Position numbers: made by a program. From Silvanigrellaceae bacterium (GTDB lineage: Bacteria; Bdellovibrionota_B; Oligoflexia; Silvanigrellales; Silvanigrellaceae): a stretch of 52,266 nt of DNA. Position 1 is the first letter of the stretch; every line of letters starts with the position of its first letter. The stretch is taken from assembly GCA_049423385.1 (NCBI GenBank), contig JBMSQQ010000008.1:1-52266 (forward strand). The letters are read 5' to 3'. Below are positions 15,001 through 18,000 of the stretch, piece by piece.

Positions 15001-18000
15001 AAATGCCGAGAAAGGGCGGGTGACAAGCGAGACCGAATCACCCTCGATATATTCAGACAACGGCACCTGTGTTCCCGACATGCGCAAGGCCGTGCTCATG
15101 AATGCGACACATCCATTCCTGCGACCCGCCGGATAAAACCTCAATACCTCTTGGAAAACGTCGTCATAGTTGGTGCGAACTTTATAGAAATCGAGAAGTC
15201 GCCGGTTTGCGGCACCACCAAGCATGCGCACCGGCAAAAACGAGGCAGCCCATCGCATCGAGTCGCAGACAGTTCCACCTCCGCGCCGCCGGCACTCATC
15301 AACGTCCCGCACCTTGAAGGGGCCGTGAACTTCGCCAGAATCGATGCAACCTGCTCTTGAAACATCGTACGAAGATCCTCGTGGACACTGCCCATCGAGC
15401 CTCAAACGCGCTGCGAAACTTCTCTCCCAGCGCGCACTTTCACAGGCAGATTCTCCGCCTCCATATTTTTTGCAAAGTGAAATCATCGTGCGTGTAAACG
15501 GGCCAAACGCCTGCTTTTCATTCACGCACATTTTGTCGGTGGGCGAATACCAACTCCCGGATGGACAATAAATGGCGTCGGGATTGGTTTTCGCGGTGGC
15601 CGACACTTGCGCGCCTGCACTCGAAATTCCTGCAGGAACATTCGCAGAACCTCCTTGTTGCGCAGTTGCAGGAGAGTCTGTTGATTCGGGTGTCTGAAGA
15701 ACTTGCTTTGCGCCGTCCGAAACAAGATTTCCAGGCAATCTGGGCTGGAGATCGCCACAGCCGGTCAAAACGGTTGCAAGAAAAACAACGGAAAGGATAC
15801 GCCTCATCGATCGACCCCCCAGTTCCAATGGGAGGAAGTGCATTTCATGCAAACTTCCCCACGTTTTTTCTACGAACCTGGGGTCAATTTACGTCGAAGA
15901 TTCAGCACAAAAAGAACTTCGTCTTTGCCTTGACTGGGCAAAAACAGCAGCCATTTTCAACAACAAGTAAAATTTTCTTGAATTCAGGAATGTTCGACAG
16001 TCGCGTCGATTGAACAATAACGTCGATTTTTTTTATTTGACGCAATCGAACGGAATTGCAGTTGTCGTTGCAAGACAACCACAATTCCCATTCAACATAT
16101 TCAAAGCAATTGAAGAAAGAACCAAGAACTCAAACGGATAGCATGTTCTCGGGGCGAAGAATTTCCTCGAGTTTTTCTCTGCTCATGAGTTTATGCTCGA
16201 GAACGAGATCAAAAACGCTGCGACCGGTTTCCAATGCCTCTTTGGCAACGCGCGTCGAATTTTCGTAACCGATGTGTGGATTCAATGCAGTGACAAGACC
16301 AATACTGTTTTCCACATAGCGCCGGCAAACTTCGGGATTCGCGGTGATTCCCGAAACGCAAAGTCGCGACAGGGTCTTGATGGCTCTTGGCAACATCTGC
16401 ATCGACTGGAACAGGTTGAACACAATTACAGGTTCCATCACGTTCAACTGCAATTGACCCGCTTCTGCCGCAAGGGTGATGGTCAAGTCGTTGCCGATCA
16501 CCTGAAAGGCGACCTGATTCACCACTTCAGGAATCACGGGATTCACCTTGCCTGGCATGATGCTCGACCCAGGCTGCATGGGTGGCAGATTGATTTCGCC
16601 GAACCCGCAGCGGGGACCACTCGAAAGCAATCTGAGGTCATTGCAGATCTTGCTCAACTTGGTTGCGAGACGCTTCAGAATTCCAGAGAACAAAACGAAT
16701 GAACCAGTGTCTGGTGTCGCCTCGATGAGGTTTGCCGAACTCACAAGTTTCATGCCCGTGATCTTGTTCAAGTGAGCCAGAGCTTTGGAACGATATTCCG
16801 GATGCGCGGTGATTCCCGTGCCAATAGCCGTTCCGCCAAGGTTGACCTCAAGGAACAAACGCGCCGCATCCTGCAGGCGCATGATGTCTTCCTCAAGATT
16901 CACGCGAAACGCTTCGAACTCCTGTCCGAGTGTCATGGGCACAGCATCCTGCAATTGCGTGCGTCCCATCTTGATGACGGAGTTGAATTCCTTCGCTTTC
17001 AATCCGAAAGCGGAGCAAAGTTCTGCAAGGGCTTCAGTGAGCGTTGGAAGGGAATGCAGAATTGCAACCCGAACGGCCGTGGGATAGGCGTCGTTGGTGG
17101 ATTGTCCAAGGTTCACGTGATTGTTGGGGTGAATGCGCTTGTAATCGCCCTTTTGAAAACCCGCGAGTTCGAGCGCGCGATTGGCGATCACTTCGTTGGC
17201 ATTCATGTTCGTTGAAGTTCCGGCCCCGCCCTGAATGACGTCGACGACAAATTGTTCGTGCCAATGTCCCGCAACAATCTCGTCGCAAGCCTGGCACACC
17301 GGAGCACACACTTCCGCAGGCAACAGGCCAAGATCCTTGTTGGCCAGAGCAGCTGCTTTTTTAACTTCGGCAAGAGCACGGATGAGGGCAGGAAACGACC
17401 GCAAGGTCACACCCGTGATGTTGAAATTTTCTCGCGCACGCAGGGTCTGCACCCCAAAGTAGGCTTCGAACGGAACATCGCGATCGCCCAGAAGATCATG
17501 CTCGGTTCGGCATTTTCCCGAGCTGTATACCGAAGAGAGCAGGCCACGGTCGCCAGCCCCTTGAACGCGACTGAAAACGTAACAAGCAGTGTTGTGCTGT
17601 ATCTTGCCGGCAAGAGGAGGATGTTCGGCCTGCATTTTTGCAAAAGATTCGCGACGCAACAGCAGGAATTCAACATCCGTCAGTGCGTGGCAAGTCGCCT
17701 GATGCAGCGTGCCTTCCTTGAGCAGCGATGCCTCGCCCATGAATTGACCGGGTCCATAAAGGGTCGTCGACTCGTCCCAATCAGCCCTGCCCTGCTGGAC
17801 TTGTAGCTCGACCCGGCCCGAAACGATGATGCGTAAACGGTCGCGAACATCACCGGGAGCATAAATGATGTCGCCGGCTTTGGAGGATGATTTTTGCAGG
17901 TAACCTTTCAGGACCTTCAATTCGCCAGGGGTGATTTCGGCAAAAATCGGCAAACCGGACAGAACAGTATCGGGCATGTTTCAGTCTCCACAGGGAAGAC

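Follow-up and report, generated by a model that had tools for sequence, protein, structure and literature searches.

What might an aspartase sense if it carries a domain resembling those of the cAMP receptor proteins at its N-terminus? The question is raised by a gene in a 52,266-nucleotide stretch of DNA (the window), which comprises positions 1 to 52,266 of contig JBMSQQ010000008.1 in the assembly of a Silvanigrellaceae bacterium (GCA_049423385.1). Aspartase connects the breakdown of amino acids with the TCA cycle and with ammonia release. The control known for it acts on transcription, through CRP and FNR in E. coli, alongside a poorly understood activation by substrate. The survey's finding was that this gene fuses the enzyme to a cyclic-nucleotide-binding (CNB) domain, that the architecture is rare and lineage-restricted, and that a His in place of the phosphate-binding Arg suggests a ligand other than cAMP.

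A sensor domain and an aspartase in one reading frame

The fusion itself is real. The gene is one ORF of 615 amino acids with an ATG start and no internal stops, and the plus strand of the same interval is stop-rich throughout. The stop-free frame places both the sensor and the catalytic domain in a single polypeptide, as in CNB-regulated enzymes, in the order CNB domain (residues 1-141), 14-residue linker and aspartase (residues 156-614). The Pfam domains cNMP_binding, Lyase_1 and FumaraseC_C are all found in this protein and in 54 of 55 relatives. The features are as follows.

16130..17977, minus strand: CNB-AspA fusion gene (P0001), 615 codons and a stop
17986..17989, minus strand: GGAG ribosome-binding site, 8 nt upstream of the ATG of the fusion gene
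17555..17977, minus strand: CNB (CRP-like) sensor domain, residues 1-141, a beta-roll and a long C-helix (residues 120-141)
17522..17563, minus strand: linker, residues 139-152 (QGAGDRGLLSSVYS), with pLDDT below 50 in the full-length model
16136..17512, minus strand: predicted aspartate ammonia-lyase catalytic part, residues 156-614 (TIGR00839 on 157-614, NF008909 on 155-614, 6wng on 156-614)
16538..16570, minus strand: SS-loop signature GSSIMPGKVNP, residues 470-480, matching GSSxMPxKxNP

The catalytic part is predicted to be an aspartate ammonia-lyase, converting L-aspartate to fumarate and ammonium. The protein scores 722.6 bits against the NCBIfam aspA equivalog model TIGR00839, above the cut-off of 681.2, and 496.2 against the fumC_II model, below the cut-off of 664.75. 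Pfam places Lyase_1 on residues 166-495 and FumaraseC_C on residues 561-613, and PDB entry 6wng aligns end to end over residues 156-614 (E=1.2e-187), as the survey had recorded. Ten of the 11 residues of the SS-loop are invariant in an alignment of 55 sequences and Ser472 is nearly so; the remaining catalytic motifs of aspartase are also conserved there. The catalytic part, the SS-loop and the catalytic motifs are shared with AspA and AspB (6wng, 1jsw, 1j3u; TIGR00839), whereas the solved aspartases, at about 470 residues, lack the 155-residue N-terminal sensor and linker.

The assembly (3.47 Mb, 183 contigs) is 90.6% complete and contains two Lyase_1 matches, the second of which is a PurB-PurS fusion on contig C102. 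The fusion gene is thus the only aspartase/class II fumarase gene of the assembly, as had been claimed, with the possibility of a missed gene at that completeness. The idea that the enzyme also serves the cell as its fumarase was dropped, given a class I fumarase on contig C18 and the score below the fumC cut-off. Upstream lies a PilZ gene, which is retained within the genus (locus L086); a look-alike arrangement occurs in one other genus of the family (L098) and is absent in three others.

The CNB domain and its pocket

Sequence and predicted fold agree on the nature of the N-terminal domain. Pfam PF00027 (cNMP_binding) matches residues 33-118 with 53.9 bits against a cut-off of 27.5, and the CRP structure 4ev0 matches residues 7-142 (E=1.4e-10), the span given in the survey. 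An AF2 model of residues 1-155 has a pLDDT of 90.5, and its best Foldseek matches are M. tuberculosis CRP (3d0s), T. thermophilus CAP (4ev0) and GlxR, with TMq of 0.75-0.78. In both sequence and fold, the closest structures belong to genuine cAMP receptors rather than to NtcA. A search of the ESM Atlas with residues 1-152 returned generic CNB clusters only, and a complex prediction for two copies of residues 1-155, run without controls, gave a score of 0.00 and makes no call either way.

With the CRP/CAP proteins (4ev0, 3d0s/3i54, GlxR) the domain shares the beta-roll, the long C-helix, the Gly-Glu of the phosphate-binding cassette and an Arg of the C-helix. It differs from them in its output, which is an enzyme: the Pfam scan of the fusion protein finds no helix-turn-helix family of the CRP/FNR type, the C-terminal part being Lyase_1 and FumaraseC_C. 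An N-terminal sensor joined to a C-terminal enzyme in one polypeptide is also the layout of Pat, the mycobacterial acetyltransferase whose NCBIfam model (NF058543) matches residues 9-116, and of Bd1971 (6hq2/6hq3), which is among the PDB matches to the N-domain profile and is described in PMC6717892 as a cAMP-sensing EAL enzyme, a phosphodiesterase, of Bdellovibrio. In contrast to these two, the output of the fusion is a central-metabolism lyase, its cassette is non-canonical and its regulation is putative.

The pocket residues map to the following positions.

17684..17737, minus strand: equivalent of the phosphate-binding cassette, residues 81-98, GEASLLKEGTLHQATCHA, from profile and structure alignments
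17702..17704, minus strand: codon of His92, which replaces the cassette Arg (PKA Arg209, CRP Arg82), from the PKG/PKA profile alignment and the 4ev0 alignment
17843..17845, minus strand: codon of Arg45 in the beta2-beta3 loop, at the canonical Gly position (PKA RI-alpha Gly169), from ungapped alignment to 4ev0 and M. tuberculosis CRP
17567..17569, minus strand: codon of Arg137 in the C-helix, opposite the second Arg of 'ARRL' in 4ev0

Measured against a canonical CNB domain, the Gly-Glu pair, which contacts the ribose 2'-OH in such domains, is present, whereas His92 stands in for the cassette Arg and Arg45 for the beta2-beta3 Gly. The alignment at the latter position is free of gaps, with Arg45 opposite the Gly of 'GD.G' in both 4ev0 and M. 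tuberculosis CRP. Among 55 full-length fused proteins Arg45 and Arg137 are each found in 54, Glu82 in 53, His92 in 52 (with Tyr in two others) and Gly81 in 51; Arg45 and His92 occur together in 52 of the 55. The His that the survey called invariant is therefore real, conserved and correctly placed at the cassette-Arg position, though it is not present in every protein. In PKA, according to Kannan 2007 (PMC2246266), Gly169 touches the guanidinium group of Arg209 and the two residues are co-conserved; a cassette Arg-to-Lys change lowers cAMP affinity nearly ten-fold. By alignment, two positions in mutual contact in canonical domains have both changed in the fused aspartases, from Gly to Arg and from Arg to His.

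Kannan 2007 also notes that in CooA the His structurally analogous to Arg209 coordinates haem. On this precedent His92 could be an axial haem ligand that makes the enzyme responsive to gas or redox state. The pocket, however, is polar and Arg-rich and keeps the canonical Gly-Glu, and no CooA-type protein is found among the best sequence or fold matches, so that we regard a haem site as highly improbable.

To see how unusual the two substitutions are, the nearest general CNB relatives serve as a residue-frequency background. With the N-domain as the sole query, an exhaustive HMMER search gave 6101 proteins at E<=0.001; multi-CNB proteins with additive scores dominate its top ranks, and the list was therefore used solely for this background (460 domains) and not to count fusions. 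An Arg at position 45 is found in only six of the 460 domains. His occupies the cassette-Arg position in 42, and Tyr also in 42. Of the 150 nearest CNB representatives, those that are not aspartases all lack the Arg45/His92 pair; it recurs in P0033 alone, a fused aspartase that is truncated. The survey's step from His92 to a non-cAMP ligand starts from a real loss of the cassette Arg, but the His is paired with Arg45, the pocket is kept and a His at this position recurs among general CNB domains; taken alone, His92 cannot tell us whether the ligand is something other than cAMP.

The N-domain of the 615-residue protein shares just 18-27% identity with those from other phyla. Across these domains Arg45, Gly54 and Arg137 are nevertheless invariant, and Gly81, Glu82 and His92 are each retained in at least 90%. 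Since Gly81, Glu82 and Arg137 are kept together with the Arg45/His92 pair, an anion-binding pocket appears to persist in rearranged form. Conservation of the presumed pocket amid such divergence is the pattern expected of ligand binding, and suggests that the pocket is under selection.

Distribution of the fused form and supply of cyclases

The architecture is not rare or lineage-restricted, as had been supposed, but common across many bacterial phyla (at least 11). A pattern scan with one genome per species showed the fusion at 48 of the best 80 species-genome loci, from 11 named phyla. In a separate, evenly drawn set of 201 Bacteroidota genomes it was present in 14, or about 7% of the species sampled. 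The survey had relied on a search by shared 5-residue words and had cautioned that distant fused forms might be missed; they were, because N-domains so divergent have too few such words in common. It had listed 21 relatives of 338-1077 residues, all with the three domains. When the search was repeated with the N-domain the three domains were again present in every protein, but the yield was 13 proteins of 614-626 residues. No paper on a CNB-aspartase fusion was found in full-text literature searches.

Unfused genes are nested within the fused clade, and well-supported branches force at least four changes. The sensor domain has been lost several times while the enzyme was kept, including in a 1.8-Mb genome of the same family, Silvanigrellaceae. 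Loss of this kind, without loss of the enzyme, is what might be expected if the domain bound no ligand and instead served the aspartase tetramer as a structural, oligomerisation or protein-docking module, and the frequency of His or Tyr at the cassette-Arg position in presumably degenerate multi-CNB domains points the same way. We nevertheless consider such a module improbable, as conservation is centred on Arg45, Gly81, Glu82, His92 and Arg137 while the rest of the domain has drifted.

The supply of cyclic nucleotide can be gauged from class III cyclase matches. There are 12 in the Silvanigrellaceae genome and at least one in all five fused-bearing genomes from other phyla. Matches are also present in 12 of the 14 fused-bearing Bacteroidota genomes, compared with 123 of 187 others, which is not a significant enrichment (Fisher p=0.15) among genomes that are interrelated. 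The other two fused-bearing Bacteroidota genomes (G090 and G176, whose completeness is not given) lack a class III cyclase match even when the threshold is relaxed to E<=0.1, and their fused proteins keep the Arg/His/Arg signature. The genes nearest to 40 fused loci, 72 in all, include neither a cyclase gene nor a recurrent partner. Among them are five histidine kinases, scattered peptidases (two of Trypsin_2 and one each of S8, M16 and M28) and two of Asparaginase_2.

Candidate ligands and a proposed path to the active site

We consider it very probable that the fusion protein is a ligand-controlled aspartase of some kind. Our preferred candidate for the ligand, put forward tentatively and as falling just short of an even prospect, is a cyclic nucleotide, cAMP or cGMP, whose binding would depart from the canonical mode; the protein would then be an allosteric aspartase. 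Counting for a cyclic nucleotide are the retained ribose-type Gly-Glu residues, the conserved pocket with its seemingly relocated Arg, the cAMP receptors that are the nearest neighbours in fold, the cyclase supply, and the precedents of Bd1971 and Pat. Counting against it is the missing cassette Arg, the main phosphate contact. The two genomes that lack a cyclase match, the non-significant enrichment and the want of an adjacent cyclase count against it as well, as do the residues at positions +4/+5 after Arg137 in the C-helix. These positions, which in CRPs read the adenine, are Ala-Gly in the clade of the Silvanigrellaceae protein, and in many others Ala, Thr or Ser followed by Asn.

Loss of the cassette Arg accompanies a switch from cAMP to nucleosides in the PKA regulatory subunits of trypanosomatids. 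On this precedent (PMC10959531 for the trypanosomatid subunits), a pocket that has kept the ribose-type Gly-Glu and lost the cassette Arg might be expected to hold a nucleoside or nucleotide that is not cyclic (adenosine, inosine, guanosine or AMP, for example). The new Arg45 beside the cassette argues instead for a bound negative charge, which a phosphate would fit better than an uncharged nucleoside, and we assign this class of ligand only a small likelihood.

A somewhat stronger contender, although still unlikely in our estimation, is not a nucleotide but a carboxylate metabolite (L-aspartate, fumarate, malate or 2-oxoglutarate), sensed in the manner of NtcA. The carboxylates would then be bound by Arg45 and Arg137, with Glu82 and His92 contacting the amino or keto group, and the enzyme would answer to its own substrate or product, or to a signal of carbon/nitrogen status. 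Aspartase stands at the junction of carbon and nitrogen metabolism, the E. coli enzyme is activated by its own substrate, the canonical phosphate Arg is lost, two near-invariant Arg residues, a His and a Glu line the presumed pocket, and two genomes bear the fused form with no class III cyclase match. According to PMC6243067, the regulatory domain of NtcA, a CRP-type pocket for a non-nucleotide anion, binds 2-oxoglutarate as CRP binds cAMP, and Arg128, on the long interfacial helix, contacts the ligand; the corresponding helix of the fusion protein bears Arg137. In NtcA, however, which binds no ribose, the Glu has been lost (cassette GVLSLL...) and the cassette Arg kept, as listed in Table 1 of Kannan 2007, the reverse of the fused aspartases, where Gly is retained in 51 and Glu in 53 of 55 proteins. 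NtcA, a transcription factor, is moreover not among the best sequence or fold matches of the domain, which are cAMP-binding CRPs. A bolder variant holds that ligand binding may be gated by pH through the titratable His92.

Returning to the cyclic nucleotide, we suggest that aspartase activity would be controlled in cis by the fused CRP-type sensor. A small anionic ligand would enter the beta-roll pocket lined by Gly81-Glu82, His92, Arg45 and Arg137, with the phosphate-binding Arg supplied by the beta2-beta3 loop (Arg45) instead of the cassette, in which a titratable His now stands. Binding would move the long C-helix, and this movement would pass through the flexible linker to the beta-strand with which the aspartase begins. 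The analogy of other enzymes with an N-terminal CNB domain suggests that ligand binding would most likely relieve an inhibited state. With a cyclic nucleotide as ligand, aspartate catabolism would come under the same signal that governs aspA transcription through CRP in E. coli.

With a dedicated sensor on the enzyme itself, the fused aspartases are a case in which post-translational control of aspartate catabolism can be tested directly, and the nested lineages without the sensor domain are natural controls. For the CNB field, the fusion adds a new enzyme output and a distinctive pocket, a natural test of how a phosphate-binding cassette can be rebuilt. Should the ligand prove to be a metabolite, the fused proteins would constitute a multi-phylum aspartase family with a built-in switch for carbon/nitrogen status or for substrate, and the first CNB-fold metabolite sensor wired directly to an enzyme of central metabolism.

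The fused gene and its genomic setting

The gene under study is a single 615-aa open reading frame with an ATG start and no internal stops, and the plus strand over the same interval is blocked by stops. It joins an N-terminal cyclic-nucleotide-binding (CNB) domain to an aspartase, in the following setting.

11661-13616, plus strand: aldehyde dehydrogenase (486 aa), then, after 9 nt, a RidA/L-PSP family protein (161 aa)
16130-17977, minus strand: fused CNB-aspartase gene
residues 33-118: cNMP_binding (Pfam, 53.9 bits, cut-off 27.5)
residues 157-614: aspA equivalog (NCBIfam, 722.6 bits, cut-off 681.2)
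residues 166-495: Lyase_1 (Pfam)
residues 561-613: FumaraseC_C (Pfam)
8 nt upstream of the ATG, minus strand: GGAG
18009-18992, minus strand: PilZ-domain protein (327 aa), its end 31 nt short of the aspartase start codon
18899-20509, minus strand: FAD/amine-oxidase-type oxidoreductase, preceding the PilZ gene

The PilZ neighbor is conserved in the window's genus (locus L086), and a similar three-gene order is present in one other genus (L098) and absent from three others. In two loci from Gemmatimonadota (L063 and L065), an Asparaginase_2 gene lies just upstream of the fused aspartase gene in divergent orientation; it is the only neighbor with an evident pathway link, from asparagine through aspartate to fumarate.

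The protein falls below the cut-off of the NCBIfam class II fumarase model (496.2 vs 664.75). The PDB matches reported in the survey were reproduced exactly, with 6wng aligning to residues 156-614 (E=1.2e-187) and 4ev0 to residues 7-142. The lyase motifs are found, including the SS-loop GSSIMPGKVNP, in which 10 of 11 residues are invariant, and Ser472 nearly so, across 55 aligned relatives. In the assembly (3.47 Mb, 183 contigs, 90.6% complete), Lyase_1 has two matches, so that the gene is indeed the only one of its type, as the survey had it. The second match (L002:1468-3078, contig C102) encodes 536 aa with Lyase_1, ADSL_C and a C-terminal PurS domain, a make-up that identifies it as a predicted adenylosuccinate lyase-PurS (PurB-PurS) fusion; no argininosuccinate lyase was found in the assembly with PF00206. 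Since a class I fumarase is encoded on contig C18, the fused aspartase need not serve as a fumarase. The fused gene is likewise the sole match in most genomes of the window's genus; other genera of the family carry an additional unfused paralogue, 41-44% identical, which is presumably FumC.

A rebuilt phosphate-binding cassette

The AlphaFold2 model of the full-length protein has a pLDDT of 83.2 and a pTM of 0.73, with low confidence at residues 63-66 and in the linker (139-152), and the N-domain modeled alone reaches a pLDDT of 90.5. The top fold matches of the N-domain model are cAMP-binding CRPs (3d0s, 4ev0 and GlxR; TMq 0.75-0.78). In profile alignments, His92, in the sequence 'spH', falls on the cassette Arg of PKG and PKA domains ('EPR', 'TQR'). 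Aligned without gaps to 4ev0 and M. tuberculosis CRP, Arg45 takes the place of the Gly in 'GD.G' and Arg137 that of the second Arg in the C-helix motif 'ARRL'; Arg45 is predicted to lie beside the cassette. In PKA, according to Kannan et al. (2007, PMC2246266), the equivalent Gly169 is in CH-pi contact with the Arg209 guanidinium and is co-conserved with this Arg. Two positions in mutual contact in canonical domains have thus been replaced in concert, the Gly by an Arg and the Arg by a His.

Conservation of pocket residues among 55 full-length proteins
Arg45: 54/55
Gly81: 51/55
Glu82: 53/55
His92: 52/55 (Tyr in loci L032 and L054; L040 degenerate)
Arg137: 54/55
Arg45 and His92 together: 52/55

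This set comprises the window protein, 13 close relatives and 41 complete reading frames, seven loci cut by contig ends being left out; Lyase_1 and FumaraseC_C match all 55 proteins and cNMP_binding 54. The replacement of the cassette Arg by His, noted in the survey, is confirmed. In other phyla, N-domain identity to the window protein falls to 18-27%, yet Arg45, Gly54 and Arg137 are invariant and Gly81, Glu82 and His92 are conserved in at least 90%. The background set was drawn from the 150 best-matching general CNB representatives and comprises 460 domains, in which position 45 is Gly in 270, Ala in 72, Ser in 42, Pro in 32 and Arg in 6, and position 92 is Arg in 303, His in 42 and Tyr in 42. 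The Arg-His pair occurs there only in P0033, itself a truncated fused aspartase. Thus, a lone His is not special, and the combination of Arg45 and His92 is.

Distribution and ancestry

The survey considered the fusion rare and lineage-restricted, a view that our searches contradict. A word-index search with the N-domain returned 13 proteins of 614-626 aa, each with the three domains; their N-domain identity of 48-92% indicates that this search reached close kin only. When one genome per species was scanned with the family alignment, 48 of the best 80 loci (from at least 599 matched stretches) were fused, covering the query from residues 1-47 through the C-terminus (up to the contig end in cut loci), and 32 were unfused, starting at about residue 150. 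His occupies position 92 in 45 of these 48 by alignment. The fused loci span 11 named phyla.

Phyla of the 48 fused loci from the best 80
Bacteroidota: 21
Gemmatimonadota: 9
Acidobacteriota: 5
Ignavibacteriota: 4
Pseudomonadota: 2
Bdellovibrionota, Rhodothermota, Zixiibacteriota, Chlorobiota, Chloroflexota, Myxococcota: 1 each
No phylum name: 1

A full-length match, defined by a profile start no later than position 5, is present in 14 of 201 Bacteroidota genomes drawn evenly from the phylum; the 14 include G041, the genome on which the sample is centered. In searches of the window's class, fused matches came only from its own family, where they occur in nearly all of the 24 genomes searched, and other families yielded unfused matches only.

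A tree of the catalytic part was built from 86 rows (49 fused, 34 unfused and three FumC as outgroup), using four of the 13 close relatives; four loci whose catalytic part is cut were excluded. Of the 49 fused rows, 48 fall into a single 75-row clade (SH-aLRT 95), which also holds 27 unfused rows. The fused/unfused label changes at least eight times on this tree, four of these changes being forced by well-supported branches; shuffled labels require a mean of 28.1 changes, and none of 500 shuffles was as low as eight. Because the N-domains share a signature unseen in any other CNB protein examined, we read this pattern as a probable single ancient fusion followed by repeated domain loss. The sensor domain was apparently lost secondarily in L094 (G021:C1:145000-147000), an unfused aspartase with a 483-aa open frame from a 1.8-Mb genome of the window's family; L094 branches as the sister of the fused clade that includes the window, with support 97 and a long branch (0.71).

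The 49th fused row, L040 (5878-7812, Marinobacterium), falls outside the fused clade; its N-terminal extension lacks the Arg/His signature, and it is the sole member of the 55 without a cNMP_binding match. L040 and L055, also from Marinobacterium and outside the clade, both have N-terminal open frames about 160 codons longer without the signature. The extra stretch may be a decayed N-terminal domain or one of another kind, or the open frame may be over-long.

Candidate ligands and putative regulation

We tentatively favor a cyclic nucleotide as the ligand, at somewhat less than even odds. The CRP-like fold, the retained Gly-Glu pair and C-helix Arg, and the new Arg beside the cassette are consistent with this, but the main phosphate contact is lost. 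The window's assembly has 12 class III nucleotidyl cyclase (PF00211) matches, each at its own site and spread over 11 contigs, a heavy representation of cyclic-nucleotide signaling for 3.47 Mb, and cyclases are present in five of five fused-bearing genomes of other phyla. Against this, two of the 14 fused-bearing Bacteroidota (G090 and G176) keep the signature with no class III cyclase match at E≤0.1; the cyclase enrichment among these related genomes of unstated completeness is not significant (12/14 vs 123/187, p=0.15); and no cyclase is adjacent among 72 nearest neighbors of 40 fused loci. cAMP signaling is not known to be common in Bacteroidota, and the presence of at least one class III cyclase over the Pfam cut-off in 135 of the 201 sampled genomes (G041-G245) is above expectation. 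E. coli aspA is CRP-activated and subject to catabolite repression (PMC1905917), which favors a cyclic nucleotide.

A dicarboxylate or amino acid is a serious, though less likely, rival: two invariant Arg, a Glu and a His would make a fitting pocket for aspartate, fumarate or 2-oxoglutarate, and NtcA binds 2-oxoglutarate in a CRP-type pocket with an Arg on the equivalent helix (PMC6243067). In contrast to the fused aspartases, however, NtcA has lost the cassette Glu (Table 1 of Kannan et al., 2007, PMC2246266).

For the fusion protein we infer ligand binding, the direction of its effect and the path of the signal. Ligand in the beta-roll would shift the C-helix, which is continuous with the lyase's first strand via a flexible 14-residue linker, and this shift would change lyase activity. 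The closest working models are Bd1971 and mycobacterial Pat, in each of which a CNB domain precedes the enzyme part. A full-text literature search, whose coverage lies outside subscription journals, found no paper pairing aspartase or aspartate ammonia-lyase with a CNB domain, or cNMP_binding with Lyase_1; the 2007 survey of CNB families (PMC2246266) mentions neither 'lyase' nor 'fumar', and public annotation of the fused proteins reads only 'aspartate ammonia-lyase' or 'hypothetical protein'. The observation that opened this analysis is thus confirmed and its interpretation partly supported. We regard the fused aspartase as a putatively CNB-regulated enzyme whose output is new and whose cassette is rebuilt, and its wide distribution makes the family more worth studying.
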